NCBI RefSeq assembly: GCF_038025025.1 | Contig: NW_027117348.1 | Coordinates: 806,001 to 870,000 of the forward strand | Reading direction: 5' to 3' | DNA from: Phyllosticta citribraziliensis | Lineage: Eukaryota | Length of the DNA: 64,000 bases | Translations under genes and position numbers: made by a program | The notes under the pieces: generated by a model | What the model was told of the DNA's origin: nothing | The model's input: only the letters and a program-made list of their open reading frames with translations | Database searches by the model: none | Shown: positions 36,136 through 64,000 of the stretch, piece after piece | How positions within the stretch are numbered: the first letter of the stretch is position 1 | Layout: every line of letters begins with the position of its first letter

Positions 36136-37474
36136 GATAAGCGCGATGGGTGTGAGATTGAAGCACTACTGGAGCACTAATGGAGCGGGATTGGCCGTAT
36201 GGTGGACAGGTTTGATGCAGTATCCTGCGAACACGTGCAGTAGGCAAGCTCAAAAGCGATAGACTCTGCCTTAGATTGCGCTGAGCACTGTGTGATGGTA
36301 AGGCTGCATAAGGACGAAGATATGAATGAGGTCGGAATAAGCTGCGGGGACGTGCGTCGCGTGCGCACTAGCCGCGAAATGCCCGCCCGCCACTTTTGCT
36401 AGAGAAGTCTAACAACATCTACCTAACTAAATAGTCTAAGTTAGTAAAATTTATAAATTTATTCTCTTCTTATATAGTACTCTCTAGCTATATCTTTTTT
36501 AAGTACTTTTCTTATAAGAGGGCTAGCTAACTTTCTTCTTACTTCTTTAGCTACTTTATCTCTCTCTTCTACCTTCTCTCTCTATCCTCCCTATTATATA
36601 TGCGTAAAGTACCCTAACCCTAACTATAATTACTAGCTATAACTATAAGCTATATATACTAAAGTTACCTAACTTCTTAAGAGCTATAGCTACTTAGATA
36701 ATTTAACCCTAGTACCTATAGGTATAATACTAATATAATAATAGAAATAAGAATAGAGCCTCCTATACCTATAGTAGAGACTTAACTAAGTAATTAGTTT
36801 TAAGAAGTATATTACTACTAATAAGCTAGTAAACTACTATATAATATAGGATTAAGATAAGGTCTTATTCTCTTATAATACCTACCTTCCTTCTACTATA
36901 ATTCCTAAGGTAAGTTAGGTAATAGAATATAAAAGGACCTTATTATATAGATACTATAGATAACTATCTTTATTTTCTTATAATTAATACTCCTAAGTAG
37001 ACTTACTACTAATTTAACTTTTATCTTATTTATATACCCTTCTTACTTAGCTTTATCTCCTATACTTATATACTATAGTATTAGATAAATAGTTACTTAG
37101 AACTAGCCTACTAATTAGGTAACCTATTAGCTTATAATAGAAAAATAAAAATTATTAAGTTACTATATCTTTCCTTATATTAACTCTCCTATTATCTAGG
37201 AAGGTCTAAAATATCCCCTACTAAGAATACTAGGTATATATTCTAGAAATAATACCTATACTAATTAGCTAAGCCCTACTTTAAGTCTTATAGTATAAGT
37301 ATTAGTAGATACCCCTATAAGCCTAGAGGACCCCTAGATATATAGCTAGAGCTACTTTATATAAGAAGTAGAGATTAGTATATAAAGAGAATATAGGTAG
37401 TCTCCTACTCTAAAACCTCTATAGGTAATAAGGTTATATTATATAGATTAGACTAAGTTAAGAACTAGTTAACT

Positions 37475-40090: not shown

Positions 40091-40287
40091 TATTATAGCG
40101 CCTAGCAGAGCGAATCAATATAGACTACTAATAATTAATAGGTAAGGAGTAAGAGTAGTTACTATAAAGCCTATATAGGAAGACTATCTACTCCTTATAG
40201 CTAATACTAACTATATATAGCTAGTATATAGGGAGAAAGATATTACTAAAACCTAGAAATACTAGAGATATACTAGTACGTATAATA
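40091..40287 (-). repeat. 3' LTR of element B (about 197 bp)
   Basis: Termini TATTATA...TATAATA (compatible with RIPed TGTTACA...TGTAACA), abutting the polypurine tract. No second copy in the window. Confidence 0.7.
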
Positions 40288-43200: not shown

Positions 43201-44702
43201 TTATTAGTATAGTAGAGGGGTATATAGCTAAGGTCTTTAGGTTTAGTACTATCCTTTAATTTAATCTTAAAGTTAGTCTAAGGATAAGTATAGGGGAGTA
43301 GGTTATTATTATAGAATATACCTAATAGGTTATAATACTTATAGGGGATAGTATAATATAGGTAAAGCTTATTACTACTAGCTAGGATATAAGTAATTAG
43401 CTCTACTAAATAAAGTTTAGTATACTCTAGTTTATTAATAGGGGTAAAGATATAGACTAAGTAGGCTTTATAGCTATACTATTAATAAAGGATAGTAGTA
43501 TTAAAGGTACTAATTAGTATAATATTAGCTAAAGAGCTAGCCTAGCCCTAACTCTATTTATTAAGGTAACTTAAAGTCTCCTTAATAGAAGTAGAAACTA
43601 GTTTAGACTACTCTTAGTACTAATAATAGTATCTTAGTTAATAGAGGTACTCTAAGGGATAAGGTTTAAGATAGTAGAGGTATTATAGATTACTAACTTA
43701 TTTAGAGCTAGCTAAGAGGGATAGTAAGGTAGGTACTATAATAGAGTTAAGAGGTTTACTATAATATAAGATTTTAACTAGAGTTATAGTAGTAGGTATA
43801 GATAGTAATAATAGTAAGGTAGGAGCTAAGGATAACTAGCTATTATTCTAGAGGAAGGTTATACTTATAGTTAGTATTAGTAGTACTAAGGTTAATATAG
43901 AGGAGTCTAAGGATAAAGATAAAGTCTAAGATACTATAGTAGTAGGTAGTAAAGACTTAATTAGCCTATAGACTACCTAAGGTTTAACTAGTAGGATACC
44001 TCCTAACCTTAAATAGTCCTAGTAAGTCTTTATAGACTTTACCCCTCTAATACTTATTACTATATATTCTAAGTCTAGGATAAATCTAAACTGGCTTATA
44101 TACTCTAAGCTAATAAATAAATTATATATAGGACTAATCTAGGTAATTATTAGGAAAGTAAGTAGATTAAATAATATAGTAGTATTATAATCTACTAAAC
44201 TAAATAATAGGCTAGTAATAAGCTTATAAGTAAGATATTAGGGCTAGCTATAAGTATAGTTACTAATTATCTAGGGCTTATATAGCTGCTGCTTCTAAGT
44301 ACTAGTAGTAATAAGTTTATACTTAAGGGACTAACTTATATATAGGCTACTAGTATAACCTAAATTAATAAGGATATAGACTAGCTATAGGGGTATATTA
44401 GGATATATATAAATATATATAGTATAAGAATAGTAAGAAGAACCTATAACTCTATTCCCTAATTATATTAAATAACTAATAGCTGTCTTATAGGTACTAC
44501 CTCCTATTATAGTTTTATAGGAGGCTACTTATTTCCTAATATCTTATCTAAGGCTACTATATTACCTTTACTAATAATAGTAAATTCTAGCTCTTTAACT
44601 ATATCTATAAACTCCTTAGTAACCTCCTCTATAACTACTATACTATAAGTAAAGGCGCGTAGTTAGCTAATAGGGTCTAGGTATAGATAATCCTTAATCT
44701 AG
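40091..44702 (-). mobile_element. Element B: RIP-degenerate chromovirus, 5'-truncated (3' LTR, PPT, pol, gag C-terminus)
   Basis: Minus strand, de-RIPed: gag end TTAGGAAAT AAG TAG (about 44525-44539), protease LVDSGC (about 44360), RT YGTYEYLVMPFG (about 42860) and AYLDDILIYS (about 42765), RNase H VETDSSD and NYAIYDKELLAI, integrase STGYHPQTDGQTE (about 41170), chromodomain EWEVEEI..FRVRW (about 40440-40530). The PPT complement C10TCCT at 40291 is adjacent to the LTR. Confidence 0.9.
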
Positions 44703-45298
44703 TATAGGTAGGACTAGCTACTTACTAATATACTTACTTAGCTAGCTGAAATACTAGTACTAGAAGAGGTATAAGAGATAGTAACTAGTAGTAAATAAGT
44801 AGGCTCTATAGGATAGGAATAAAATAACTACTAAACTAACTAAAATAAGCTACTATCTAGCTGTCGCTTTATTATCTAAGTAGTATAAGATTTAGGTATA
44901 AATAATAAGTATAAATAAATAAATAACTAAGTATTTAGTAGATAATAGTTTAACTAAGTACCTAAGACTTTATTTATATAAGTAGTACCTCTTAATCAGC
45001 AGCTATAAAAGGGGGTATATAACTAGCTAATCTACTACTAAAAATACTAATAATATAAAACCTCCTATTACTACTAAAGATACTAAGTTTACTTATACTT
45101 TTATTAGCTATTATTATTACTACTAAACTATATAGAACTATATCTTCCTAGTATTCTAGAGCTACCTATAGTCTTATTTTCTTACTAGCCTAATCTTCTA
45201 CTTATATCTAAGCTAAAACCGCGGCTAAGAATAAGAATAATAACTGCTAAAAGTAACCCTTAAAAGCTATAAAAACTATACTAGCTAGTAGTACTATA
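44703..45298 (-). repeat. LTR of element C (left copy)
   Basis: Near-identical to 60460-61055 apart from mostly transition differences. Confidence 0.93.
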
Positions 45299-45523
45299 TA
45301 TAGGGGGGTACTCCTTATTTTACTATCCCCTAGTAAGTAAGAAGAAATAAGGATAAAAGGTAAGAGAGAGAGTATAAGCTATAGTCTATAGGAGGCTAGA
45401 TTAGAGTAGCTAATTAGTATACTACTTACCTAGGTTATATATACTCCTATAAATAGGGCTAGTAGGTAAGATATTATCCTAGTCCTTATTCTTACTATAC
45501 TTATTATAGTGCTAGATACCTAT

Positions 45524-46940
45524 TATAATAACCTTTATTTAAGAAGGTTTACTAGATCAGGAGCTTTCTAGGTAACTTTTAGATAAGCTTAATATATAAG
45601 CTTATAGAATAGAACTAGATAATTTAAATGGTATATTTCCTATCCTAATCTAGTAACTTATTAGTAAGATATTTAAAAGAGAAGGAAATACTTAAATAAT
45701 ATATCCCTATAGAAAATTACCTAGTAGATAGATAAACTTTAGAACTTCTAGATAAATACTATAGCCTCTAAGGTATTATATAATAATACTCCTTAGGCTT
45801 AGTTACCTTCTAATCTATCTTAATATATAGGTCCTTCCTATATAAAGACCTAGCTAGGACCTCCCTACCTACCTAATAGGGACTAGGATACTAAAAACCT
45901 TATACTTAGGTTCTATACTTCTATATAGTAGAAGTCTAGAATATCTTTTAGAATTACTATATCTTAACTAGTTATTAAGTTATTATAGTTAGAAGTTATT
46001 AGGAAGAATAATCTACCTAATAACTTTACTTTAATTAGGGAATCCTTACTTCCCTTAATATCTAATTAAAACTAGGTTTTATTAGAGAGTTAGTTTTACT
46101 TTAGATATAGTCTCTATATAATTATATAGGTAGTAGATAACTACTATATAATTATATAGGAAGAAAGATCCTTTCTATAATTTTTATTAGGTACTAGGCT
46201 AGTATATTTTATTAGTAGTTAAGGAAACTACTAATTAGTAAAGTACCTTCTTTCTAGTTATTCTAGTTATTAATTAGGTATTAGCTAACTCTCTAGTATT
46301 TTACTTTACTAGAAAGTACTTAGTTAGAGACTTCTATCTATTATTATATAATAGATACTAGTTCTCTTAGTACTAGAGAAAGGTATATAAGAAGGCCTTA
46401 AGTCCCTCTAGATAGCTTTTCTAGTAATAACTCTCTCTCTCTCTCTCTCTCTTTCTTTAACTCTTTAATTACTCTTTACTAAATTTACTCTTTTTACTTA
46501 AAAGACTTTTCTCTATCTATTTAAGATTACTAGTCTATTAAGATATATATCCTATAACCTACTAATAAATAGACTAGAAGGGTATAGAGATATCTCTCTT
46601 AGTATAGGCTTATATAGTAGTCTTCCTCTATATTAATATTAAAATAAGGCTATACCTCCTTACTTAAGTATTCTATTTTAGGGAACCTAGAGGTTATATA
46701 ACCTCTACTAGCTATAATCCTACCTTAGATACTTATATAATAATATATATTTATTATATTAAGGGGGCTAGGCCCTAGTATATAGTAATATCTACCTAGA
46801 GGCTAATTTCTCTCTAAGTAATTACTTAACTATTTAAGAATTATATAAGAAAATTAGGTACTTAGAGAAATTATCTATATATCTAAGCAGTCTTAGCTAT
46901 TAAGCCTATTTATAGGGATAGCCTAGGTAATACTATTATA
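45524..46940 (+). repeat. 5' LTR of element D (1417 bp)
   Basis: Starts TATAATAACC, ends TACTATTATA; aligns to 53374-54706 with indels. Confidence 0.92.
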
Positions 46941-49900
46941 GCTTTATTACTCCTAGAGAAGGTTCTCTAGGTTTTCTTAGACTTTTATCTATCTAAGTTT
47001 ATTAGAATATTAGATATACCTACTATATATCTATATTCTTTTTTACTTATTTAGACTATAGATCCTACTTAACCTATACTAGATTAGGCTACTATCTAGG
47101 CTAATATAGAGGCTTCTAATAATACTTATTTCTCTACTATAGAAAGAGTAGTAGAAGGTATTTAATCTAGCCTTAATAAGCTAAGGGTTTAATAAGAAAA
47201 TAATTAGGTACCTATACTATTAGTACCTCCTTAGGAAACCTTTAGTAATCTAAGAGATAAATACTATATTAAAGTATCTAAGCTAGATACTTATAATAGC
47301 TCTAGAAATAAATTAGAACCTTACTTAGCTTAGGTTTCTAATTATTTCCTATTCTTTAGCTATCTCTTTAGTAGTAAAGTAGAAAAAATTATATTTACTA
47401 CTTTCTTTCTAAGAGGATCTACCTTTAAATAGTTTAACCCTTTTAGATAGGATTTTAATAAGAAAGACTATTTCTATAGGAGAGATTCTATTAAGGACCT
47501 ATTTAATAGCTTTAATAGTTATATTAAAGCTATTTAGGAGATCTTTAGTATCTATAATAAAAAGAAAGATATAGAAAGATACCTTACTTAATTAAAATAA
47601 TAAAAAGCTACTATAGATTATACTACTTTATTCTAGTAATTAGCTACTAAAGTAGACTAGAATAAGGCTACCTTAATATACTAATATAAACTAGGATTAA
47701 AAGAAAGAATTAAAGATAAGCTTACTAGGTAAGATCCTCTCTCTTCTCTATCTAGTCTTATAGATTCTACTATTAGAATTAATAGTAGAAGCTACTAAAG
47801 ATATAAGGAGACTAGAGGAGTAAATTATTATAGTAAAGATACTTCTATAGGTTAAGGAGACTCTATAGATATAGGGGTAATATATAAAGAATATAACCTA
47901 TACTATCCTTCTAATCCTAAGGGGAAAAAGTCTTATAACTATAATAATAAGCCTAGCTATAAGAAAAGGAATAATAAGGGCTATTATTCTATAGCTTATA
48001 CTACTTATAAGGATCCCCTAGATACTATAAATAATAATAAAGAGTAAGGAAATAATTCTAAGGTAAAAAACTAGGAAAGGCTTTAATAAATAGGGTTACT
48101 AAAGCTACTACTTTACTTTTTAATAAAGGAAGTAAATCCCTAGTATCTATAAAGGAAGCTATACCTTATAGTAATACTAGTAAGAGAGGGAATAATTATA
48201 ATAGATACCTAGTTATTATAGTTTATCTAAATAGAATTAAAGCTAGAGCTTTAATAGATACTAGAGCCTAAGGAATATATATAGACTCTAAATTCTAGAG
48301 ATAGTATAATATAGCTATAAGGGATAAATTAATACCCTATAAGCTTTATACTATAGATAGAAGTCTAGTTAAAGAAGATAAAGGGTAGGTTTTACTAGAA
48401 ATTAAACCTATAGCCCTAGAATATAGAAAGACCTACTAGGAAAAAATTATACTAGATATTATTAAGATCCTAGGCTATAATTTAATACTTAGAATACCTT
48501 AGTTAAGGAAATAGGAGCCTATTTTAGACTTTAGAAAGTTTAATCCTATTACCTTTTACTCTAAAAATCTAGCTAATATCTATAACTATAGGTATAAAAA
48601 ATACCTATAATTATAAGATATTAAGCTAGAGATTATAGAGCCTAAAATATAGATATCTACTATATCCTATAAGTCTCTTAAGAAGAAAAGAAAAAATAAA
48701 GATATCTTTATTTACTAGTATAAACTAGATAAATTACCTACTCTTATAAAACTAAGGCCTATAAACTATAATTTAAAGAATATAGATATTTAAGACCCTA
48801 CTAGGCTAAATATCTAATCTAGGAAGCTACTTAAAACTATTTATAATACTAAGGAAAAAATACTCCTTAGTAAAAGAAGTAGTAAAGATAGCTCCTTAGA
48901 AAAAAGTTATATAGAAAAGGTCCCTAAGGAATATTATTAATACCTAGATTTATTTCTTAATAAAGAGGATTCTAGTACTTTACCTAAATACTAGCCTTAG
49001 GACTATAAAATTCCTATAAAAGAAGAAGAAAATCCTATATTTAGTCTTATATATTCTCTATTTAATATAGAATTAGAGGCTCTTAAGACCTATTTAGATA
49101 AGAATATAAGAAAAGGTTATATTAAACCTTCTTCTTCTCCTTATAGATCTCCTATATTATTTATACCTAAATCTAATAGTAAATTATACCTCTATATAGA
49201 CTACTATAAGCTTAATAGTATAACTATTAAGAATAGGTAGCCCCTACCTTATATAGATAAACTATAAGATAGGTTTAATAGTACTAAATATTTTACTAAG
49301 TTAGATTTAAGAGATAGGTATTATTTAATAAGGATAAAAGAAGGAGAAGAGTAGAAAACTACCTTTAAGACCTACTTTAGATTATTTAAATATTTAATAA
49401 TACCCTTTAGCCTTACTAATACTCTAGCTACTTTCTAGGTACTTATAAATAATACTCTAAAAGAATATTTAGATATCTTTATAACTACCTATCTAGATAA
49501 TATTTTAATCTACTCTAATAGTCTAGAGGAGTATAAAGAATATATATTAAAGGTTTTAGCTAAACTAGAAGAAAGAAGACTTCTAATTAAGCCTAAAAAA
49601 TATATATTCTCCTCCTAAGAAGTTAAATTCCTAGGATTTATAATAAGGCCTAATAAAGTCCTTATAGATTCTAATAAAGTAAAGTCTTTATTAGAATAGC
49701 CTACTCCTAAGACTATTAAAGAGATATAGTCCTTTCTAGGGTTCTATAACTTTTATAGAAGATTTATAAGAGACTATAATAAAATAGCTAAACCTCTTAT
49801 ATACCTTACTAAAAAAGATATACCCTTTAACTAGATTAAGGAGTAAGAAGATTCTTTAAATAAATTAAAAGAGGCTTTTATTACTACCCTAATTTTAAAG

Positions 49901-52149
49901 ATCTTTAATTATAAATCTCCTATTACTTTAGAAACTAATACTTTAGATTATACTATAGGGGCTTATATAAATTAACCTAATATAGAAGGAAACCTTTATC
50001 CTATAGCTTATTACTCTAGAAAGCTATCTCTAGTAGAATTAAATTATAATATCTATAATAAAGAATTACTAGCTATAGTAATAGCTTTTAAAGAATAGAG
50101 ATATTATTTAGAAGGCTCTAAATATTCTATATCTATTATAATAGACTATTCTAATTTAAGGTACTTTACTAGTACTAAATAATTAACTTACTATTAAACT
50201 AGATAGTTAGAAATACTATCTAACTATAATTTTACTATTTCCTACTATAAAGGAAAGGATAATAATAGGGCTAATACCTTATCTAGATACTTAGACTATA
50301 TATTAAATAAGGAGTCTACTCTTAAGACTATATTTAATAAAATAGAAAATAGAGATTTAATTATTAATAAACCTTAAGTAAATATACTATATAAGCCTAA
50401 ATTAAAGCCTAATAAGAACTCCTCTTATTAGCCTATAATTAGGTCTATAGCTACTCTTACTAGAAGTCCTAGTAAAGAAGAGGAAGAATAAGAATTAGAA
50501 GAAATACTAATAGATTTACCTATAAAAAATAGGCCTATATTAACTACTCCTAAAGAATTCTATAATTCTATACCTAGTATAGAAGATATAGTAATTTCTA
50601 AAGATATCCCTATAGGTATAGAAGATAATATATCTAATTCTTCTACTCCTTCTTCTACTTCTTCTACCTCTATCCTATTTAATACTAGCTAGGAAGAACT
50701 CTTTAAGAATAGTTATTCTAAAGATACTATAGCTTAGGAACTATTATTAGCTACTAATAATAAGGATCTAGATATTAAAATAATAGATAATAGATCTATT
50801 ATATTTAAGGGGCTACTTTATATACCTAAAAAATAGTATAATACCCTTATAAAGGCTATATATAAATCTCCTATCTATAGATACTAAGGAATAACTAAAA
50901 TAGTAGAAAGAATTAGCTAGAACTTTTATATACCTAGTTTATATAAAAGATTAAGAGATATCCTTAAAAGTTACCTAGAATATATTAAATCTAAGTATTT
51001 TAGATATATACCTTATAGAGCTCTTAAACCTATTAAACTACCTAATTAGCTATAAAATTCTATAGCTTTAGATTTTATAATTAAGCTACCTAGCTCTAAA
51101 GTCCCTAGATCTAAAGATATATTTAATAGTATTTTAGTTATTATTAAAAGGATAACTAAATTCTCTTACTTTATACCTTATAAAGAAGATTTTAATATTA
51201 AGATACTAGTATATACCTTCTTTAGGTATATAATTAGTTAATATAGAATACCTAGGACTATAATCTTAGATAGAGATTCTAAATTTATATCTAAATTCTA
51301 GTAAACCCTTATAAATTAACTAGGATCTAAAACTAAATTATCTATAGCTTATTATCTATAAATAGATAGTTAAATAGAAAGAATAAATTAAGTAATAGAG
51401 TAATATCTTAAGATATACTCTAATTATTAATAAAATAATTAGGTATCTCTATTACTATTAGCTTAATTTACTTATAATTCCTCTATAATAGAAACTACTA
51501 GAATAAGTCTATTTTATACTAATTATAGCTTTAAGCCTAATTACTTTAATAAACCTAAACTCTATAATAAGTTAGCTTAGGACGCTATTATAAAATCTAA
51601 TAATTTAAAGGAGTTATATAAATCTTTAGTTAAGGATATATATTTTATCTCTTATAAAATAGCTAAATATTATAACTAATAGTATAAGAATGTACTAAAC
51701 CTTAAAGAGGGGGATAAAGTATTTTTATTAAAAAGAAACCTCTCTATAAGATAACCCTCTAAAAAATTAGACTATATAAAGGTAGGACCTTTTAAAATTA
51801 TTAAAAAGGTCTTAAGTCTAAACTATAAATTATAACTACCTAAGGACTTACCTATATATCTAGTATTCTATATATTACTATTAGAAAAGTACCTAGATAA
51901 TATACCTCTTATAACTAATAGAGAAGCTAAAGACTCTCTATTAATAGATAAAGATTATAAGGTAGAAAAAATACTAGACTATAAGTACTATAAGGGAGCT
52001 TATAAGTACTTAATTAAATAGCTAGACTATCTATCTAATAAGAACTCCTAGGAACTAGAGGAAAACCTTATAGGAGCCTAGGATTTACTTAAAGAATTTA
52101 AGGAGAAGTATCTTAATAAATTTATTAAGAAAAAGAAATATAAGTACCT

Positions 52150-53290
52150 ATACTTTTCTTCTACTTAGTTATTTATATAACTACTTATATAAAGTCTTAT
52201 TAAGCTTATTTTAAGCTTAATACTAGGCTAATATACCTAAAACTAATATCTATCTTAAGACTTACTTCTACTATAACTTCTAGCCTTAATAGTAGAAGAA
52301 CTAGTAGTATAATTTAAGAAATCTTTATATATTTATAATCTATAAATCTTTCTAGATCTTTTAATATATAATATTATATAATCTACTATAGGAAAAACTA
52401 TACTACTTAAAGAGGAGAAAACCCTTTCCTTAATAATTACTTAACTAAATATAGATAGATTTTTAAAATTTTTATATTCCTAGAATAGTAAAATTCTACT
52501 CTTTAGGACTATATATTTACTTAGGTCTATATACCCCTAGTACTACTCTAATAAAAGGAAAGAAAAAAAGAGAAAATTTACCTTCTCTTATAAAAAATAT
52601 TTAAAAGAGAGACTATAGTTATATTTCTTTTAGGCTACCTTTACTAAGGCCTATATATAAAGGTTCTAAATAGTTCTAGAACTAGAACTAGTTAGAACTA
52701 AAGAAATTAGTACTAGTAGAGACTTCTTCTTCTCCTAGATAAGTAGGTAAGGTATAGCTATTATATACCTTATCCTCTAGCTCTAGAATAGGACTAGAAT
52801 TCTAAATATATTCTATACTTAAATTAGAAAAGTCCTAGATCCTTTAAAGGGTATCTCTAATCTTAGCTAGCTCTCTTTCTAGAGAAGAAACTTATTTCTC
52901 TAGAACCCCTATCTTAGCTCTTTTATTTAGAATAGACTACTCTATCTTATAGATCTTATTCTTAAGGCTATTTAGGGGAGTCCTTTTAGCCTTATAGGGT
53001 TACTTAGCTATATATATATTAGTATTATACTTATATATATAGTTAAGAGTAAAGGACTTACTAAAAGAGTAAGTTATCTTATTCTTTATATAATTTATAT
53101 AAGAATAAATAGTAAATAGTTCTCCCTTAGGATTATCCTTATCTTAATTAGACTAAGTATAGCTTAAATAGTAATAATATTTATAGTTTTTAAGGTAGGA
53201 TTAGTAGGGTTTCTTATCTTTATCTAAAAGGCTAGATCCCTTACCCCTATTAAATAAAGGGATATAAGGGTATTAGGTAGAAAGAGATAT
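52150..53290 (-). pseudogene. RIP-inactivated antisense cargo gene of element D: Zn2Cys6-like cluster, basic linker and coiled coil, with 1-2 introns
   Basis: TAC/TAT codons at 53206, 53197, 53176, 53101, 53092 and 53071 give C-x2-C-x6-C-x24-C-x2-C-x6-C. Intron 53061..53008 (GTAAGTCC, TACTAAT, TAG). The spliced frame continues into a heptad repeat. The 3' end and second intron (about 52581..52509) are less certain. Confidence 0.7.
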
Positions 53291-53373
53291 AATTACTCTA
53301 TCTAGGACTAGACCTCTATAGTCTCTATATACTTATAGAATATAGGATATATTCTAGGAAGGAGAGAGATAGC

Positions 53374-54706
53374 TATAATAACCTTTATCTAAGAAGGTTT
53401 ACTAGATTAGGAGCTTTCTAGGTAACTTTTAGATAAGCTTAATATATAAGCTTATAGAATAGAATTAGGTAATTTAAATAGTATAATTCCTATCCTAATC
53501 TAGTAACTTATTAGTAAGATATTTAAAAGAGAAGGAAATACTTAAATAATATATCCCTATAGAAAATTACCTAGTAGATAGATAAACTTTAGAACTTCTA
53601 GATAAATACTATAGCCCCTAAGGTATTATATAATAATACTCCTTAGGCTTAGTTACCCTCTAATCTATCTTAATATATAGGTCCTTCCTATATAAAGACC
53701 TAGCTAGGACCTCCCTACCTACCTAATAGGGACTAGGTTATTATAGTTAGAAGTTATTAGGAAGAATAATCTACTTAATAACTTTACTTTAATTAGGGAA
53801 TCCTTACTTCCTTAATATCTAATTAAAACTAGGTTTTATTAGAGAGTTAGTTTTACTTTAGATATAGTCTCTATATAATTATATAGGTAGTAGATAACTA
53901 CTATATAATTATATAGGAAGAAGGATTCTTTCTATAATTTTTATTAGGTACTAGGCTCTAGATTAATTAGGCTAGTATATTTTATTAGTAGTTAAAGAAA
54001 CTACTAATTAGTAAAGTACCTTCTTTCTAGTTATTCTAGTTATTAGTTAGGTATTAGCTAACTCTCTAGTATTTTACTTTACTAGAAAGAATATACTTAG
54101 TTAGAGACTTCTATCTATTATTATATAATAGATACTAGTTCTCTTAGTACTAGAGAAAGGTATATAAGAAGGCCTTAAGTCCCTTTAAATAGCTTCTCTA
54201 GTAATAACTCTCTTAACTCTCTTCTTTAACTCTTTAATTACTCTTTAAATTTACTCTTTTTACTTAAAAGACTTTTCTCTATCTATTTAAGACTACTAGT
54301 CTACTAAGATATATATCCTATAACCTACTAGTAAATAGACTAGAGGGGTATAGAGATATCTCTTTTAGTATAGGCTTATATAGTAGTCTTCCTCTATATT
54401 AATACTAAAATAAGGCTATACCTCCTTACTTTAGTATTCTATCTTAGGGAACCTAGGGGTTATATAACCTCTACTAGCTATAATCCTACCTTAGATACTC
54501 ATATAATAATATATATTTATTATATTAAGGGGACTAGGCCCTAGTATATAGTAATATCTACCTAGAGGCTAATTTCTCTCTAAGTAATTACTTAACTATT
54601 TAAGGATTATATAAGAGAATTAGGCACTTAGGGAAATTATCTATATATCTAAGCAGTCTTAGCTATTAAGCCTATTTATAGGGATAGCCTAGGTGATACT
54701 ATTATA
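53374..54706 (+). repeat. 3' LTR of element D (1333 bp)
   Basis: Same termini as 45524-46940; preceded by the PPT. Confidence 0.92.
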
Positions 54707-57700
54707 CTACTACCTTATATAAGTACTCCTTAACCTAGTAGTAAAAATAGGTAGTTACTCCTAGGAAGCCCCTTAATAATTTAAGGTCTTAGGAAGTATC
54801 CTAATTATTAATCTTATCTACTTTAGACTTAGTAGGTAGGTATCTAAACTCTCTATATCTAAACCTAATAACTTCTACTTCTAGTATACTAAAGAAGGAC
54901 TTCTCTTTTAAGATTATAAGTCTAACTAGTTCTAGGTTCTATAGTATATTATTAATATCCTAGATATACTTAAGTATAAATTACCTAACTCCTATAACTA
55001 TACTTTCTATATTATTATATTAGCTCCTTTATTAGCCTCCTATAATATTATCTATAAAAAGGTTAGCCTTATCCTATTAGTTATCTAGTATATATCTTAG
55101 GCTATAAACTACCTATCATAGAGAATTAATTATACCTTAGGAAAGTATATAATTATACTAGTATCTCTAGAGATTAATAAATCTAGTAAGATCCTAATAC
55201 TTTTTAGTAACTATAAACTAATTAAAACTAGAGTATAGGTCTATAAGGGTATATATTATAAGCCCTTCCTAGTATTCTATATAGTTATCTATTAGTCCTA
55301 GTATACTAGTATCTTAAATAGTAATATTATTTAGTATTTATAGATTATTAATCTACCTATATATACTATTCTTCTTAGGTAAGACTATCTAGGGATTATA
55401 ATATTAACTAGAGTAGTACTTAATAATTCCTATATCCTACTAGGTAGTAAGTAAGTTAAATATATACTATATTTTAGCTTATAAGATATATAATACTCTA
55501 ACTCTCTAGGCCTTATATAGTATTATCTTAATAGGGAACCTATATATTACTATTAGTTTAACTTATCCTATTTCTAAAAGGTTAAATAAGATAGTACCCT
55601 CTCTACTATATAGTATTTCTAATATTAGTTCCTACTCTCTTAGCTAGAGGTTATCTCTAGTAATAAGGCTAACTAGCCTTTCCTATATAAGGTATATACC
55701 TAGTTAAAAAATAATAATCCTTAGATAAAATAAGTAGGTAAATTATCCCTAGCCCTAGAGGTCCCTTACTAGTATAGTAGTCTACTTAGTAATTATAATT
55801 TCTTTAGTTTTCTACCTCTTAATTATATTTAATAACTCCTCCTATAGTATTAAGTTATCTATAGGCTCTATCTTTATACCTTTTTATTTATATACTATAT
55901 ACTAGTGCGGGTTTTATTATCTAGTAGTATTAAGATAATTAGGAAATATACTATACTAAGATACCCTATAATAAAAAATACTCTATTCTCCTATTATATA
56001 TATAGTTAAAAACATATCATCTAATACTAAATTAGTAATTTTAGTATTTTATTTATTTTAATTATATAGGCCTCCTACTAGTTAGTATAGTAATTATATA
56101 CTAATTAGCCCCTAAATTATTATACTAGCTAGTTTTCTAGCCCTACTACTTATATACTATTACCACTTTAAATTCTAATAGGACTAATATAGTATATAGT
56201 ATCTTTAATACCTTTAATAAATAGGAATGCCTAGTAGGTAATAATTTCTATATAGTAATAAGGGTTAATAGGGTAGGTAAACCTTAGCTTAACTACCCTA
56301 GTAGGTATAGTTTTAAATTTACTACCTATTAAGATAATCTAGGGTATTCCTAATATAATAGGGATAGTAGTTTAGTTATATACTAGGAAATAAGTACTCT
56401 AGGACTAATCTCCTATTTAAATAGCTAAACTTAGGATCTATTATTTAATTTTATACTTTAAACTATTTATAAACCCTATAGTTATATTAAAACTATTAGG
56501 TAGTATATCCTATACTAGGATACTAAGTTTAGCTATAAGGGCCTTAGAAATACTATTTATATTTACTCTAGTATCTACTAGTACTCATACTATATAGCTA
56601 CTAAAGGATACTAGGATAAAGGGTAATAGGATATAGTAAATAATAAGGCCCTATTACTTAGCTAGTATTATAACCTCTTTATAGGTTATTAGCTTTAGCT
56701 TACTATCTCCTCTAGTAGTTATAGAATCTTCCTAACCCTCTAGTAATTTAATACTAAAGTATATCTTATATATTAATAGGTCTATAGGCTTACTATCCTA
56801 AAGGGGCTTACTATTAGGCCTATATAAAATAAAGCTCTAAGTAGGTATATACTTTATAGTATATACTAGGCTTATATATATATAGTTAAAAATTCTAGAG
56901 ATAGTTTTACCCTTAGTAACTAATATATTAGTTAGTATATTTAAATATATAAAGATCCTATCTAGGAAATAATCTTCTTATTTAAATAGGTAATACTAGG
57001 AGAAGTTAAATTCTATAGGCTTATTAGAGGAGTTAAACTAGTACCCTTTAATATTATTAACTAGTTCTATATATATAGTACGTATTAGCTTCTATAGGTC
57101 CTCTATTATATATAGGTATTTATTTAGTACCTATAGGTTATTATAAAGTATTTCTTAGACCTCTTCTATAATCTTAGTACTAATAGGAGTATAAAATAAC
57201 TTCTATATATTATTATATAGGCTAAGGATTCCTTTTATATACCTAATAGTCTCCTTATTAAAGATATCTCTATATCTCTAGCTATTTAGTCCTAGTTTAT
57301 ACTATTTATAATAGAATAGGTCTCTAAATATAATAGTTTTAACCTAGTACTACTTAGGGGGGGCCCCTTTACTAAGTAGCTCTAGCTTATTATTCTCTAA
57401 TCCCTTAAGTATAATACTTAGCTTATTTTATAGGATTTCTTTAATATTAGATATATCTTTATTAGTATCCTCTATAGTTACTCTTTAAGGTTTATCTATA
57501 TTAGGCTCCTAAGTAGGCTCTTTACTAGAGATAATAGGTTCTTTAATATTACTACCTAGTAGACTAGTAATAGCTAGTTATCTTAGCTATTAAGGTATAT
57601 TTATTAGTAGGGTTATACCTAGGATATCCTTATTAGATATATTCCTAGTCTTATTAGTTATTACCTACTTAGCTATATTCCTAACTTATTTATTAATAGC

Positions 57701-60459
57701 TATTTTATTAACTATAACTTATAAGATTTTAGCTCCTCTTCTCCTAGCTAGCTTCTTTAGCTTCCTTATATATTTTATAATCTTTATTAGGTTTATAAAG
57801 ATTATATTTCTAGGGGGTACTTTAGCCTTAAAATAGTATATACTATATATTATCCCTTTATTATAATAGTAAATCTAATAGAAATAAGGCTAGCTATCCT
57901 CTATATTAGTCTAAGTATAGTTAATCTAAATATACTAGCCCTAGTCCTAGTTATATTAGTCTTAGTTATATTAGCTATAGTCTAAAGGTATATTATATCT
58001 AGTATTAATTTATAGTAGGGGCTAATATCCTTATAGTTCTTTATTTAATATAGATTAAGATAATAACTCTCCCCTAGTCTAGTAGGGAGTTACTTATTAT
58101 TCTAGTACTAGTAGTATTTTTAGTAAATTATTATTATTTATCTATCCCTAATACTATAAGTACTTCTTAATATCTAGCTATTTATTCCTCTTATAAGTTA
58201 ATATTAGCTAGCTATTAAAGTCTTAGATATATCTATTTTAACTAATAGATATAAGGCTAGTATATATAAATAGTAATAGAATAGGATAACTCCTAACTAT
58301 ATAGCTAGTCTTATTATAACTCTAGTATTCTCCTATTCCTATACTTTAATTTATATTTAAACTAGTAGGTCTAGCCTAGTTATAAGAGTTAAGGTTATAT
58401 TATAGTTAGCCTATAGGAGCTATCCTAGGTAGTAGTAGCCTTATTAGTAGAAGACTAGGACCTACTTATAGAGTATATTATCCTAGTAGTAGTATATACT
58501 ACCTAGCTAGCTAGTCTATTCTAATAGAGCTATTATAGGGAAATAATAACTAGATAACCCTTATATATAGGTCCCTACTACTTATAATATATCTATACTT
58601 CTTACTATCTATAAGCTATTTATAGATATAGCTAGTAGCCTCCTAGATTAATTTAATATATATCTTAGCTAGCTTATCTACTAGGTCTTTAACTATAGTA
58701 TTATTACTCTTTACTAAAGGGGTCCTAGTCTTAGAGGTTAACTATCTACTTAAAGCTATAGTTATAGAGGAAGAGCTATTTAAGGATAATATTATAAGTA
58801 GTAGAGGGGACCTAGGAAGATATCCCCTTCCTATTAGTATAGGGTCTATAATATAGTCTAATCCCTTAATATAGTATATAACTATATTTATAACCTCTAG
58901 TAAGTCTATAGAGTATAAGGCTATATACTATTTATATTCTAGTTAGGCCTTAATATATAATTAGAGGTACTAAATATTCCTAGCCCTATAAGATAAGTAC
59001 CCCTTATATAAGAATCTAGTTTATATATCTATATATAGGGTATTAAGGAACTATATCTCTTATAGGCTTTTATTAATATATCCTTCCTCTACTACCTTAT
59101 TACTAAGTATCCTATAAAGCCTAAAGAACTTATCTACTTTAGAGGGGTAATAGAGGTCCTTATATCTCTTAGCTAAGTTCTTAATATAGCTCTAGTTCCT
59201 ACTAATTATACTAGTATCTTAGTTCTTATATTATACTAGTATCTAGACTTTTAGACCTTCCTAATCTCTAGTCTAGAACTTAATAGTATAGTAGATCTCT
59301 AGGCTAATTAGGGTTTTATAATACTAAACTAGCTTTAGTATAAACTCTTCTAGGAGACTCCTAGCTATAGTTATAGTATAGAAGTATTTATATATCTTAA
59401 GGAATAATAATATATTATCTCCCCTAAACTATAGCCTTTACTTTAGTACTAGTATCTAGCTTATTAGGATTATCTATATTAGGGAAGCTATTCTTATATA
59501 GTATTAGTTAGCTTCTATTAATAATAATAACTCCCTACTATTCTAGGGGAGAGTTATTTCTATAGTATCTAGTATTAGCTAATTAGCTTAGCTTAGCTAT
59601 ATTATTTTATTACTATCTATCCCTAGTAGTAGTATAATTATAGGAGGTGTACCTAGTCTAGTAAAAGGTCTAAATAAACCCTTAGCTAGCCCTACACCTT
59701 ATAAGGGAGCTTAGGTACTAATTACTAGTAATAGGGGTACTATAGATAGTCCTCCTTAAGTAATTATAGGCCCCTACTACTAGCCTCTAGAAGAGTACCT
59801 ACTACTATAAGAACTAGATTATTATCCTTTCCCTCTATCTCCTCCTAATATACCTCTTCCTCCTTATCTATTTCTTCCTAATCTACTAGAAGAACTTATA
59901 GTTCTTATAGGTAGGCTATTAAATTTATTATATAATTATATCTAAATCTACCTTTATAACTCATTATATAAACTACTAACCTTATAATATAATAGAATAG
60001 TCTAAGAAACTTAATAGGCCTTAGTAATCTAATATATATAATATAACTATATAAAAACTAGAGAATTAACTATCTAGGCTTATCCCCTATACTTTATAGG
60101 TAGAAATACCTAGAATAATATTATACTTAATAAAAATAGAACTAATTATAATTAGATAGTATAGTAATATTATTCTATAAAGTATATACTAACCTACTAT
60201 AAAATTATAAGCATTAATCTTATAGCTTATATAGTATTTATAAAATAGTACCTAAAATAAATAAGTAAATAATTACTAGTATAATAGTAATAACCAGTAT
60301 AGTAAATATATAATAATAGGCTAGGTAGGAGAGGGTAAAATTAATAGTACTTATTAGTAATATCCTAAAGCCTTTTACTTACCTAATTTCTGCCACTATT
60401 ATATATTTATATAATTAGGTAATAGTAAGCTCCTAATCTATAGAAGCTATACTATAAAA

Positions 60460-61055
60460 TATAGGTAGGACTAGCTACTTACTAATATACTTACTTAGCT
60501 AGCTAAAATACTAGTACTAGAAGAGGTATAAGAGATAGTAACTAGTAGTAAATAAGTAGGCTCTATAGGATAGGAATAAAATAACTACTAAACTAACTAA
60601 AATAAGCTACTATCTAGCTATTACTTCATTATCTAAGTAGTATAAGATTTAGGTATAAATAATAAGTATAAATAAATAAATAACTAAGTATTTAGTAGAT
60701 AATAGTTTAACTAAGTATAAAAGACTTTATTTATATAAGTAGTACCTCTTAATAAGTAGCTATAAAAGGGGGTATATAACTAGCTAATCTACTACTAAAA
60801 ATACTAATAATATAAAACCTCCTATCACTACTAAAGACGCTAAGTTCACTTATACTTTTATTAGCCATTATTATTACTACTAAACTATATAGAACTATAT
60901 CTTCCTAGTATTCTAGAGCTACCTATAGTCTTATTTTCTTACCAGCCTAATCTTCTACTTATATCTAAGCTAAAACTATAGCCAAGAATGAGAACAACAA
61001 CCGCTAAAAGTAACCCTTAAAAGCCGCGAAAACCGTGCCGGCTAGCAGTGCCATA
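60460..61055 (-). repeat. LTR of element C (right copy, 5' LTR)
   Basis: Repeat of 44703-45298; the last ~80 bp retain CG, CA and TG dinucleotides. Confidence 0.93.
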
Positions 61056-64000
61056 CTAGGTGCTAGAATACTTCTCTACTAAATACTAACTTAATATTTA
61101 ATAAGCCTAATAGTTAGAAAAACTTACTAAATACTATATATAATTTATATATAGGCTAGGAAAAGATAATATTATTACTAATACCCTTATATAAAAATAA
61201 GAAGAGCTATAAACCTAGAAGAATAAGAGTATTACTAGGTATATAATATAATTTATAGCTAAAGACTAGATTCTTAATCTAAATACCCTTAATATTACTT
61301 TTAGTAGCTTATTCCTAATCCTAGATAGAGTACTAGAAGTAAATAAAATATCTAGTATATTAGAAGAATAGTATATATAAGCTTATAAACCTAATAAGAA
61401 GGATTAGACCCTTTATAATAACTATCTCTTCTTTAAGAAGTACCTTATAGTTCCTAAATAAGAAACCTTATATATAGAGCTAGTAAATAAAATTTACTTA
61501 TTATTACTACTTATATATACTAGATAAAATAAAACTTAGGAAATAGTAAGGAGGTACTACTACTAGCTAGGTATTACCTAGTAAATTAATAATATTATAA
61601 AGGCCTACTATATATACTAAAGAAATATAAACTTCTATAATAAGAAACTAGGACTATACTAACCTCTCCTAATTCTAGACTAGGTATAGTAATATATTAC
61701 TATAGATTTTAAAGAGATATCTAAGGATAAATCTAGGTATAATACTATTCTAGTATTTATAAACTAGCTAAGTAAGTAAATCTTTAGCCTCCCCTACTAT
61801 AAGACTATTAATATTAAGGGTATTACCTAACTATACTATTAGTATATTTAGAGAATATATAGTATACCTAAATTAATAGTTTCTAACTAAGGACCCTAGT
61901 TTATTTTAGATTTCTAGAATAAGCTATATATAATTACTAGTATTAAATAGAAACTTACCTTAGCCTACTACTCCTAGACTAATAGTACTATTAAAATTAT
62001 AAACTAGGTTATTAATCTATATCTATAACTATATATTAGCTATTTCTAGGATAATTAGGTAGAAAGACTCCTAGTATTAGACTTTATATAAGTAATACTC
62101 CTATATAAATCTATAGATATATCCCCCTATAAGTTAATCTTTAGCTACTAGCCTAGCTTCCTATTTAATTAGGAGAAATATACTATATATCTAGAGCCTA
62201 TAAAGAAACTATCTTATATTACTATATAGAAGTTTACTAGATATATATAGGAAACTATATAGTAGGCTAAATAATAACTAGGTCTTACCTAGGAATAAAT
62301 AGTATAAGCTATAAACTAATTCTAATAGGAACTAGACTTTAAGGAAGGTAATAAGGTATATATCTCTATATAGGGTATAAGTACTAATAGGCCTAGTACT
62401 AAACTTAATATTTAGAATTAAGGACCCTACTATATCTATAAGAAAAAGGGATACTCTTATAAGCTAGAACTCCTAGTATATACTAGAGTTATAAACCTCT
62501 TCTATATACACTACTTATAGAAGGCTTATTCCCCTTTACTAGGCTAGGTTTCTATTCTTAAACCTTTAATTATCTACTAGAACTAAGAAGAGTATAAAGT
62601 TAACTTTATATATAATAGTAAGGTAGAATAAGGTACCCTAAAGTACTAAGTATAATAAAAAGAATATAATTAAGATAATATATAGTATAAGGCCTTAGAT
62701 ATAGTTAGTATCTCTAATTAAATTAAGAAGTACTATACTAAATTTCCTAAGATACTAGGACTACTAAAGTACTTATAAGACTAGAAAGATATAATAGTAT
62801 ATAAGCTAGATTATAAAGGTACTATAAAGAATAATAAGCCTACTCTCTAAGTAGCTAACTAAAACTAAACCCTCTAATACTACTAGAAAATATAGGATAC
62901 CCTCTAGAAAAACCTATTATATACTAAGAAAACAGATTATTAAGGCTCCCCCTCCTATAAACCCTCTACCTTAGACTAATAGATAAGGGCCTTAGCCTAA
63001 AGCTAATTACCTAGACTATATAGTAGTAGAGATATACCTTAATAATCTATAAAAGTATTATTACTAAAACTATCTACTAGGGAACTATAAGGGGTAATAG
63101 GACTATATATAATCTAGGTATAGATATAGGTATAGGGGGGTACTATAGGAATAGGTAATAGTAATAATAATAAGGATAAAGAGGATATCTTAAGACTAGA
63201 AACCTATAGTAGTATAGTAGTAAAAGAACTAGAAATAGATAAAGAAGCTATATATACTAGATTAAATAGACTAGTATTACTACTATTAGATTTATTAGAT
63301 AAAGAGGATATATTAGATAAAAAAGAAGGGCTAGACTTTCTAGATAAGAAAGAAGGACTTAGTTTATTAGAAGGGATATATTTACTAGGTATAGGTAAGG
63401 ATAAAGAAGAATAGGCTATTAAGAGAATTATAGAAACTATATAACTAAAAACTCTTATAGGTATATATAGAATTATTACCTTCTATTCTAGAAGGGTAGT
63501 ATTACTAGATAAAGAGGTAATAAAAGTAGGACTAGTAGAGATAGTAGAAATAGTAGAAGTAGAATTAATAAATAGAATATCTAGTATATAGATAGATAAA
63601 GGTATATTATTAAAAGGATTAATAGGGCTAGTCTTAGTCTCCTTAGAAGAAGAAGTATTAGTATCTAGTATAGGCTTATCCTTTAAAAATAGACTACTAA
63701 GACTAGTTATAAAGTTATCTAGATAATTAGGGACCTTATCTAAGGGATTATACTAGCTATTATAAATATAGTTATCTATATTATATATACTATAAGAGAA
63801 AGTACTATTATCCTACTTATAATTACTATAGTTACTACTAAAGAAACTAGGAATCTAGTAATAACTAATAAATAGATAATAGATACTATTAGATAGCTTA
63901 GTATATATATAGTACTTATAATTAGTACTCTATAGAATACTAATAAATTAGATAGCTATAATAGAGACCTAAGAATAATAATAATATAGGTTATCTATTA
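61056..64000 (+). mobile_element. Element A': RIP-degenerate chromovirus from the RNase H end through integrase and chromodomain, plus an antisense extra ORF; runs off the window
   Basis: ALEYFSTKRQLN.RQARW, YRPGKDN..ADAL, GLHQPLPIPDRVWQHITMDF (about 61650), VSDRGPQF, SAYHSQTDG, GPY, chromodomain EEYEVDFI..KYQV.W (about 62590); pol stop near 62850. It may be the 3' half of element A. Confidence 0.88.
62880..64000 (-). pseudogene. RIP-inactivated antisense ORF with a DUF3716-like Cys cluster and long Ser/Thr/Pro-rich tail (5' end beyond the window)
   Basis: De-RIPed AIQ..G......C..C...........PF..C.RIPGFFGGNCGNCKW......SCS at about 63955-63790. The same frame continues about 300 codons with only sparse RIP-type TAG/TAA stops. 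Confidence 0.7.

Follow-up and report, generated by a model that had tools for sequence, protein, structure and literature searches.

The window analyzed here is a 64,000-nucleotide stretch of the Phyllosticta citribraziliensis genome (assembly GCF_038025025.1, contig NW_027117348.1, positions 806,001 to 870,000 of the forward strand). It contains a block of nested, truncated elements, at the end of which a Ty3/Gypsy pol fragment on the plus strand lies tail to tail with the relic of a gene on the minus strand. The features are as follows.

38717-40090: gag-PR-RT piece, with the RT broken at about 40090
42773: inverted RT
44703-45298: first copy of a 596-bp direct repeat
45524-54706: LTR element, nested within the 596-bp-repeat unit 44703-61055
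60460..61055, plus strand: second copy of the 596-bp direct repeat, LTR-like, ending where pol homology starts
61057..62778, plus strand: 5'-truncated Ty3/Gypsy pol fragment (phmmer; motifs by regular expression and by eye)
from 61150, plus strand: RNase H end of the pol fragment (YRxGKxN...ADALSR-like)
about 61444, plus strand: integrase zinc-binding region
61759 and 61882, plus strand: integrase core
62347-62523, plus strand: SH3 (SH3_Tf2-1, E = 0.023, 15.2 bits, under the cut-off of 30)
62587-62751, plus strand: chromodomain-like stretch, by eye against the domain consensus, with no Pfam Chromo match at E up to 10
62779..63203, no strand: RIPed spacer from pol stop to gene stop, with a pyrimidine run at 62946-62956 and the 14-mer TATAGGGGGGTACT at 63131-63144
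63204..63998, minus strand: RIP-inactivated gene relic (stop statistics and in-frame homology), open at the window end, with 264 sense codons, 6 internal RIP-type stops and its own stop TAG at 63206-63204
63207..63743, minus strand: S/T/P-rich low-complexity C-terminal tail, colinear with J3D65DRAFT_606018 residues 170-333 up to a common stop
63744..63950, minus strand: candidate cysteine-cluster segment of 69 codons (first-pass motif at 63956-63789; Tyr, 22%)
63951..63998, minus strand: 16 codons upstream of the cluster, a same-frame match to J3D65DRAFT_606018 residues 153-169

The minus-strand codons from which the first-pass annotation had proposed an antisense gene match the DNA exactly at 63956-63789, where they form codons 15-70 of a frame starting at 63998. 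Over 63998-63207, this frame has 7 stops in 264 codons and the remaining five frames have 20-58. In 2000 first-order Markov shuffles, no frame of the six had 7 stops or fewer (minimum, 12). By comparison, repeat-induced point mutation (RIP) has left even the genuine pol frame with 8-15 stops per 100 codons. Only the minus frame stays open across all 264 codons. The plus-strand frame of pol is nearly open at 63135-63750, with 3 stops there, so that the openness of the tail alone gives no strand call. In the nonrepetitive cluster region, stops counted per bin show that the minus frame is open and that the plus frames close.

Alternatively, there may be no gene here, and the open minus frame would be a by-product of a strand-biased low-complexity stretch (LTR/U3, 3' UTR or the antisense of a plus-strand ORF). 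The plus strand is purine-rich (A, 0.44; C, 0.08), which lowers the number of stops on both strands, and the 3 stops of the plus-strand pol frame are in keeping with this. In addition, TATAGGGGGG at 63131, with TACT after it, may represent a G-run PPT and then a TG-type LTR start; the 14-mer at this site recurs at 45299, behind the repeat of another element; and LTRs of 1.3-1.4 kb are present in the block. Alignment of 62760-64000 with the element sharing the 14-mer scored 60 (null maximum, 57). Openness through the cluster, where the plus frames close, and its absence from all 2000 composition-matched shuffles argue against this alternative, as does the plus-frame product, which resembles no Gag region of the window's other elements and no Pfam family. 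When the cluster, the tail and the plus-frame product were each aligned as protein, allowing for RIP, with the block's six frames, all scores were within the null. We consider the absence of a gene quite improbable.

The relic has a single database relative among 7144 candidates (E = 4.2e-16), J3D65DRAFT_606018 (P0002), a hypothetical protein of P. citribraziliensis whose gene carries an ordinary annotation on a 1.66-Mb contig. The two are colinear over the tail and the 16 upstream codons and have the same stop. In the tail, the alignment has 186 columns, 85 of them identical (local E = 8e-34), and all three gaps preserve the frame. Among the 157 aligned pairs, 85 are identical and 72 differ; 54 of the differing pairs fit C>T or G>A from J3D65DRAFT_606018 to the window, 7 fit the reverse and 11 fit neither. 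The 16-codon match scored 31.5 in a RIP-aware local alignment, a score reached by 0 of 200 shuffles (largest, 30). The J3D65DRAFT_606018 model omits exactly the 69 cluster codons and is in the same frame on either side of them. Openness beyond chance, homology, differences in the RIP direction and a common stop establish that the minus-strand gene relic is real, and it extends beyond the window end: from the alignment, it needs at least about 500 further bases outside the window. The proposed antisense gene is thus borne out as a RIP-degraded coding relic, convergent with pol.

The relative differs from the relic in being far less RIPed and in having no 69-codon cluster, so that no natural un-RIPed version of the cluster was seen. 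It also has 152 extra N-terminal residues without a counterpart inside the window. J3D65DRAFT_606018 had no match in Pfam or among viral contigs; a protein word index (8000 scored candidates) returned the protein itself only, and HMMER on 1.84 billion representatives returned itself and one spurious repeat protein (P0003) only. Its ESM Atlas model has a pLDDT of 0.31 and gave no usable structural look-alike. Given this pLDDT and the near absence of relatives, J3D65DRAFT_606018 may be no more than a spurious prediction over a repeat relic. The no-gene alternative takes it as such, and its disordered look and lack of relatives favor that alternative, whereas the frame-preserving gaps and the same frame on both sides of the omitted codons weigh against it.

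Downstream of codon 70, about 300 codons rich in TCT/ACT/CCT had been expected to end just beyond the pol stop. The richness was confirmed (52 of the last 179 tail codons), but the length was not, since 194 codons run from codon 70 to the homology-supported TAG at 63206-63204, and 426 bp separate the gene stop from the first in-frame stop of pol (62776-62778). The predicted serine/threonine/proline-rich C-terminal stretch is present, with S+T+P making up 39% of residues.

The RIP indices over 63204-64000 are 1.66 for TpA/ApT and 0.00 for (CpA+TpG)/(ApC+GpT). The translation of the relic is devoid of C, G, H, M, Q and W residues, and the Tyr share is 22% in the cluster, 4% in the tail and 11% in the pol frame. 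Since CpA and TpG are wholly absent, each Cys codon now necessarily reads Tyr. The absence of Gly indicates that RIP acted outside TpA contexts too, which widens the ambiguity. RIP has reached saturation in this stretch, rewriting Cys, His, Gln, Trp and Met codons, removing Gly and creating six premature stops. The present copy is functionally dead. The spacer at 62779-63203 is RIPed similarly to both of its neighbors.

To our knowledge, DUF3716 is a large fungal domain family without an established function. DUF3716 and PF12511 are rarely named in the full-text literature. The cluster had been read as carrying the DUF3716 signature; all of the named positions are allowed under RIP reversal, but the sequence as it stands has no Pfam match. 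RIP was reverted at TpA only (TAT/TAC to C/H/R/Y, AGT to G/S and TAG to W/Q/R). In this RIP-ambiguity space, the signature CxxC..PFxxC..GxCxNCxW..C[ST] occurred once in six frames of 27.5 kb, at the cluster, and in 0 of 200 Markov shuffles, in a post hoc test whose signature was built from the first-pass reading and a general family pattern and in which 15 Tyr among 69 codons leave a choice of Cys. The spacing used (PF..C and G.C.NC-type) is what we take to be that of DUF3716 cysteines. The no-gene alternative treats this pattern as chance among many Tyr codons, and the lack of the full signature in the shuffles argues otherwise.

The minus-strand translation, with X at stops, matched no Pfam family at E up to 10, a nearly uninformative test because RIP rewrote every Cys, Gly and Trp codon. 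The PF12511 HMM has 59 positions and a curated cut-off of 22 bits. A Pfam search with six frames of 54001-64000 and three short pieces, again with X at stops, gave only the weak SH3_Tf2-1 match; the 100-codon cluster region found nothing among proteins of 55-175 amino acids, and neither a viral record nor 14 control genomes contained a PF12511 match. GNCGNCKW, written as a degenerate DNA pattern, hit 5 viral and 7 metagenome loci, which were rejected: 11 were out of frame among stops, and the other (L006) has an open cysteine-rich frame without the remaining signature. A Zn2Cys6 domain has the spacing C-x2-C-x6-C. This reading of the cluster was dropped, as there is no Tyr at those positions.

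The candidate resembles DUF3716 proteins in its size of about 55-69 codons against the 59-position model, in a possible six-Cys reading, in its fungal nearest relative and in S/T/P-rich disordered flanks. It differs in that all of its candidate cysteines are inferred from Tyr codons and in that its only relative is without the segment. The range of DUF3716 in filamentous ascomycetes is consistent with the assignment; the sole relative is from Phyllosticta, and the flanking genes are ordinary fungal ones. A published report describes one such protein, REP9-1, as having 193 amino acids and six cysteines (PMC8232023). At the level of sequence, membership of the cluster in DUF3716 is permitted, not proven.

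The neighboring pol fragment matched residues 1073-1442 of Ty3 Gag-Pol (7q5b_A) by phmmer (E = 2.4e-07), and its integrase is of the Ty3 type. The first-pass annotation had called it a second chromovirus, A', with the antisense gene as its cargo. Only a 5'-truncated fragment with integrase and a chromodomain-like end is present, with pol homology starting abruptly at 61057. A continuation of pol to the left of the 596-bp-repeat unit was rejected, since the joined frame showed no RNase H by eye and, in the one frame searched, no Ty3 match. The copies of the 596-bp repeat are 94% identical (99.5% in a purine/pyrimidine alphabet) and have sharp ends, TA...TA, with CTAG on either outer flank. These 596 bp, common to element "A" and A', look from their sequence like the LTR pair of another nested element. 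The set of LTR pair, PBS, PPT and TSD that bounds a chromovirus around gag-pol was not found in the window. After pol, the plus strand has no purine run of at least 9 (PPT) up to the window end, and 62779-63203 showed no terminal repeat, TSD or sign of a breakpoint. The cargo claim is not supported in the form given: the window shows no PPT, LTR or second copy of 62760-64000, and the gene runs off its end.

Transition-tolerant DNA alignment of 62760-64000 against the remaining block gave nothing beyond the null range (49-95 against 62-97). Pfam searches with the plus frames of 36001-44702 found nothing, and two frames of 55800-60458 found nothing usable in the PDB.

Other copies were sought in read runs X1-X3, which represent one sample and are small, with contigs of at most 291 nt and no cover over 62340-62927. 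Contigs of run X3 contain other diverged copies over 63307-63983; none of the 10 reaches 90% similarity, and transitions account for 55 of the 71 changes. The pol and gene regions each have other copies in the same sample, and no contig of X1-X3 (at most 291 nt) joins pol to gene. One of the other copies loses similarity at 63307, within the tail.

One reading, which we hold only tentatively, places the relic inside the chromovirus as an antisense accessory ORF, with pol on one side and a 3' LTR past base 64000 on the other. Relic and pol converge, with 426 bp between the relic and what looks like a complete end of pol with integrase and a chromodomain-like stretch, and the 1.2 kb after pol, where a standard chromovirus should have them, include no purine run of at least 9 and no LTR-like repeat. 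The uniform RIP of spacer and neighbors and the multicopy state of both regions in the same sample are also in keeping with it. Element junctions number about 1 per 5 kb of the block, so that a chance break directly after pol would be infrequent. Antisense ORFs between pol and the 3' LTR are, moreover, established in plants (PMC11963269). On the other hand, no 3' LTR, TSD or second linked copy was seen, the gene extends at least about 500 bases past the window, and pol, too, is cut off at 61057. No similarity to 62760-64000 was found in the gag-PR-RT piece upstream (38717-40090), which leaves the A' element without a known LTR. The read contigs link nothing, one copy diverges inside the tail, and the literature searched contains no description of an ORF of this kind in a fungal LTR element.

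About equally likely, and just as tentative, is that the gene is part of a separate repeat, adjoining or cutting into the chromovirus at its 3' end, which could be a REP9/IS3EU-like DNA transposon or a host-gene duplicate. The block consists of truncated elements nested in one another, and J3D65DRAFT_606018 is annotated as an ordinary gene. There is also a precedent: REP9 of Zymoseptoria tritici is described as an IS3EU-like class II transposon with two DUF3716 genes (PMC8232023). A separate unit is disfavored by the lack of any terminal repeat, TSD or breakpoint signature in 62779-63203 and by the adjacent integrase, which is of the Ty3 type (ADALSR-like junction and chromodomain-like end) and not an IS3EU transposase.

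We somewhat favor the reading that a repeated fungal gene, probably with a six-Cys DUF3716-like domain, has left a dead minus-strand copy in the last 800 bases of the window, next to a broken Gypsy fragment. The protein before RIP would have had at least about 415 residues. Its N-terminal part would lie beyond the window, followed by a module of about 60-70 residues and then the S/T/P-rich tail, which would be disordered. The module is most likely a six-cysteine, zinc-type, DUF3716-like domain and may have bound nucleic acid or chromatin. One DUF3716 paper reports an orthologue of a Neurospora telomere-repeat-binding protein (PMC10776026). The relic lies tail to tail, 426 bp away, with the 5'-truncated integrase fragment and its chromodomain-like end, among nested RIPed elements.

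Two known systems resemble this arrangement. REP9 shares a multicopy DUF3716-type gene associated with a mobile element with an integrase-fold (RVE) enzyme in a Dothideomycete, and differs in having 43-bp TIRs, 6-bp TSDs and an IS3EU-type transposase (PMC8232023); in the window, a Ty3/Gypsy pol that ends in a chromodomain-like stretch is the neighbor and supplies the one RVE enzyme visible, which is of the Ty3 type. The broader proposal that many DUF3716 orphans might be retroelement cargo is not supported in the form given; a case of DUF3716 genes as transposon cargo is already published, in a DNA transposon (PMC8232023). Plant Ty3/Gypsy elements carry antisense ORFs between pol and the 3' LTR (Retand TRP28, maize Grande and rice RIRE2), which are described as convergent, possibly DNA binding and accompanied by low-complexity or repeat sequence in the interval (PMC11963269). 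The orientation and position of the relic fit an ORF of the Retand/Grande type, with a 3' LTR that would fall beyond the window. The plant cases differ in belonging to nonchromovirus lineages and in that their 3' LTR is defined and most copies contain the ORF (PMC11963269). The domain of the relic is unrelated to theirs, and a 3' LTR and linkage were not seen in the window or in contigs of at most 291 nt.

A chromovirus family of Phyllosticta-like Dothideomycetes with a convergent DUF3716-type six-Cys gene between pol and the 3' LTR is unlikely on present evidence. If true, it would give fungi their first equivalent of the antisense ORFs of plant Retand/Grande elements. Were copies regularly colinear with a chromodomain integrase, the mobile context of DUF3716 would extend to a second transposon class, and a fungal example would join the known antisense genes of LTR elements. 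The DUF3716 transposon REP9 changes sporulation of a wheat pathogen, according to its report (PMC8232023), and, taken with REP9, such a family would mean that mobile elements with an integrase have taken up DUF3716 more than once, perhaps as a means of targeting chromatin or DNA. For now, the main value of the locus is as a dead relic that points to intact copies in related genomes.

The minus strand at the window end carries the RIP-killed relic of a repeated gene (63998-63204, running off the end) with a probable DUF3716-like module, beside a truncated chromovirus. The first 36.4 kb of the window is ordinary fungal DNA (G+C, 53 to 61%) with a housekeeping set of genes encoding a cyclin, an alpha/beta hydrolase, a G-patch protein, a YTH1-type RRM protein, an SNF2/RING helicase, an arrestin, a MOSC/aminotransferase protein, and SHR3. 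The remainder of the window has a G+C content of 23 to 32%; the sharp switch, at about 36400, goes from 51 to 59% down to 22 to 34% in 100 bases and lies directly after the SHR3-chaperone gene (35461-36165, minus strand). The TpA/ApT ratio is 1.77 in 36501-64000 versus 0.51 in the gene-rich part, and the (CpA+TpG)/(ApC+GpT) ratio is 0.02 versus 1.28. The two repeat pairs of this sequence are 94 to 97% identical, and 96 to 99.5% identical in a purine/pyrimidine alphabet, demonstrating that nearly all differences between the copies are transitions. The RIPed repeat block has its edge at about 36400, and 36501-64000 is at or near RIP saturation.

The codons quoted in the first-pass annotation are exactly codons 15 to 70 (63956-63789) of the minus-strand frame starting at 63998, and each residue proposed there is permitted when RIP is reverted at TpA only. 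Under such reversal, tyrosine codons can stand for Cys, His, Arg, or Tyr, AGT for Gly or Ser, and TAG for Trp, Gln, or Arg. The CpA/TpG index is 0.00 in 63204-64000, and therefore a cysteine codon that was TGY in the ancestor has to be TAY today. The 264-codon translation contains no Cys, His, Gln, Trp, Met, or Gly. Tyrosine makes up 22% of a 69-codon cluster (63950-63744), and 4% of the S/T/P-rich tail that follows (63743-63207); the true pol frame has 11%. Stops occupy 7 of the 264 codons, with 20 to 58 in each of the other five frames; the six-frame minimum was at least 12 in every one of 2,000 first-order Markov shuffles of this stretch, and the genuine pol frame nearby has 8 to 15 per 100 codons after RIP. 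The plus strand is purine-rich over the gene relic.

Over 63135-63750, the plus-strand pol frame reopens, and its roughly 205 codons there include just 3 stops. Its product, K/E/D/L-rich with short internal repeats, mirrors the S/T/P-rich minus-strand tail and showed no Pfam match and no likeness to the Gag regions elsewhere in the window. Because this frame is nearly open there, the strand is not told by the openness of the tail alone. The minus frame is the only one open through the cluster as well as the tail, and we regard it as quite unlikely that the relic is not a gene.

A word-indexed protein search with the X-read translation yielded a sole match among 7,144 candidates (E = 4.2e-16), the uncharacterised 333-amino-acid Phyllosticta citribraziliensis protein J3D65DRAFT_606018 (here P0002). 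Residues 170 to 333 of P0002 are colinear with window codons 86 to 264 (85 of 186 alignment columns identical; local E = 8e-34), and the same stop, TAG at 63206-63204, ends both. The 157 aligned pairs comprise 85 identical and 72 different ones; among the latter, C>T/G>A changes acting on the P0002 codon can yield the window residue in 54, 7 are explained solely by the opposite direction, and 11 fit neither direction. This excess indicates that the window copy is the same sequence after heavier RIP. In a RIP-aware alignment, residues 153 to 169 fall on codons 1 to 16 (63998-63951) with a score of 31.5, exceeding 200 of 200 shuffles. Since both flanks align, P0002 keeps the frame of the relic on both sides yet omits exactly the 69 cluster codons. 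A further 152 N-terminal residues are without counterpart in the window. On the simplest reading, the gene would continue for 450 bases or more outside the window, and the annotator would have spliced the stop-ridden segment out of P0002; the gap may possibly be a true deletion in that species. P0002 matched no Pfam family, the word index gave it no further relative, and a comparison with 1.84 billion representatives returned one spurious repeat protein and nothing else. Its Atlas model is disordered (pLDDT, 0.31). With no family, no relatives, a disordered model, and the cluster omitted, the J3D65DRAFT_606018 gene model looks like an annotation over a partly RIPed repeat relic.

Contigs from two read runs of the same sample, each at most 291 nt long and joining nothing to pol, cover this region. 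Across 62949-63728, the run X1 contigs agree with the window at every base. All 10 of the run X3 contigs placed on the stretch are less than 90% alike, 5 of them covering 63307-63983, and 55 of the 71 changes listed are transitions. These diverged contigs show that the gene region is repeated in that genome. The other copies are likewise RIPed, and the rows shown restore no cysteine codon.

The candidate cluster is the size of PF12511.13 (59 positions; cut-off, 22 bits). As it stands, the relic translation matched no Pfam family, which says little because RIP rewrote every conserved Cys, Gly, and Trp. The 27.5-kb block, read in six frames, holds a single occurrence of a RIP-ambiguity signature (CxxC, PFxxC, GxCxNCxW, C[ST]), located here; none of 200 Markov shuffles contains it (1 of 200 without Pro and Trp). 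Since it was derived from the first-pass reading and the general family pattern, these counts measure rarity, not membership. An independent datum is REP9-1 of Zymoseptoria, a DUF3716 protein with 193 amino acids and six cysteines (PMC8232023). No un-RIPed relative of the cluster was found in the protein word index, the 1.84 billion representatives, or viral and metagenome DNA. The cluster has a slightly better than even chance of being DUF3716-type; the probability left over by the cargo, separate-unit, and not-a-gene readings goes to a real gene whose module is of another cysteine/histidine-rich kind. In the open-access full-text literature, DUF3716 is named in two papers and PF12511 in one more, and IPR022190 has no mention.

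The plus-strand frame at 61057-62778, the pol fragment termed A', matches the Ty3 Gag-Pol integrase (7q5b_A residues 1073 to 1442; E = 2.4e-07). Its features are as follows.

61150, plus strand: RNase H-end/ADALSR-like junction, 5' of the integrase match
62347-62523, plus strand: SH3_Tf2-1, weak match
62587-62751, plus strand: chromodomain-like stretch, by eye only, no Pfam match
62776-62778, plus strand: first in-frame pol stop

Upstream lie nested elements.

44703-45298 and 60460-61055: 596-bp direct repeat pair, 94% identity, 99.5% as purine/pyrimidine
45524-54706, plus strand: complete RIPed LTR retrotransposon
45524-46940 and 53374-54706: its LTRs, 1.33 to 1.42 kb, 94 to 97% identity
53356-53369: its PPT, 14 nt
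49490, plus strand: its RT YxDD motif
50261 and 51353, plus strand: its integrase motifs
38717, plus strand: Gypsy gag zinc knuckle
39004, plus strand: protease
Ending about 40090, plus strand: first half of RT
About 42773, minus strand: RT motif

The 596-bp repeats have termini of the form TA...TA, and CTAG borders the pair on each outer side. They enclose the LTR element, flanked by CCTAT/CTACT (equal as purine/pyrimidine), and a further 6 kb of RIPed, unclassified DNA, for which a PDB search with two frames gave no usable match. The minus-strand RT motif, together with the match of 42367-42665 to 49896-49598 in inverted orientation, suggests a putative reversed fragment of the 45524-54706 family. 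The pol homology of A' starts abruptly at 61057, immediately 3' of the second 596-bp copy, and no continuation in a matching frame was found left of the 596-bp-repeat unit; A' is a 5'-truncated fragment. The first-pass observation is confirmed, and its interpretation is partly supported: a RIP-degraded minus-strand gene convergent with pol is upheld, A' as a second chromovirus is not. Because pol homology starts only after the repeat copy, what A' and its upstream counterpart, A, have in common is the LTR-like repeats of another, nested unit, not pol.

The gene may, tentatively, have been cargo of the chromovirus, an antisense accessory gene. It is convergent with pol, whose 3' end seems complete, and no plus-strand purine run of 9 or more occurs within 480 bases after pol. 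Since nothing elsewhere in the window resembles 62760-64000, no LTR with a partner in view starts there. Junctions in the block are spaced about 5 kb apart, so one falling by chance in the short interval just after pol would be uncommon. The plant elements Retand, Grande, and RIRE2 (PMC11963269) show that such antisense genes exist. However, a 3' LTR, a TSD, and a linked second copy were not found in the window or contigs, the pol fragment has no LTR assigned to it, the block as a whole is an element graveyard, and a published transposon carrying DUF3716 genes is a class II element (PMC8232023). In the open-access full-text literature, no fungal LTR retrotransposon with an antisense ORF was found, and the matches listed there for extra ORFs in chromovirus/Gypsy elements are plant and animal cases, with no fungal one.

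That the gene belonged to a separate unit adjoining the pol fragment is about as likely as cargo, each at below even odds. The 14-mer TATAGGGGGGTACT has exactly two sites in the 64 kb, at 45299-45312, immediately 3' of the first 596-bp copy, and at 63131-63144, within the spacer that separates pol from the relic; their flanks are otherwise unrelated. It may represent a primer-binding site common to both places, or else a PPT formed by a G run and followed by a TG-type LTR start, and in the latter case the open minus frame would sit inside a long LTR. For the idea of transposon cargo, a precedent exists in the DUF3716 family: REP9, an IS3EU-like class II transposon of Zymoseptoria tritici with two DUF3716 genes.
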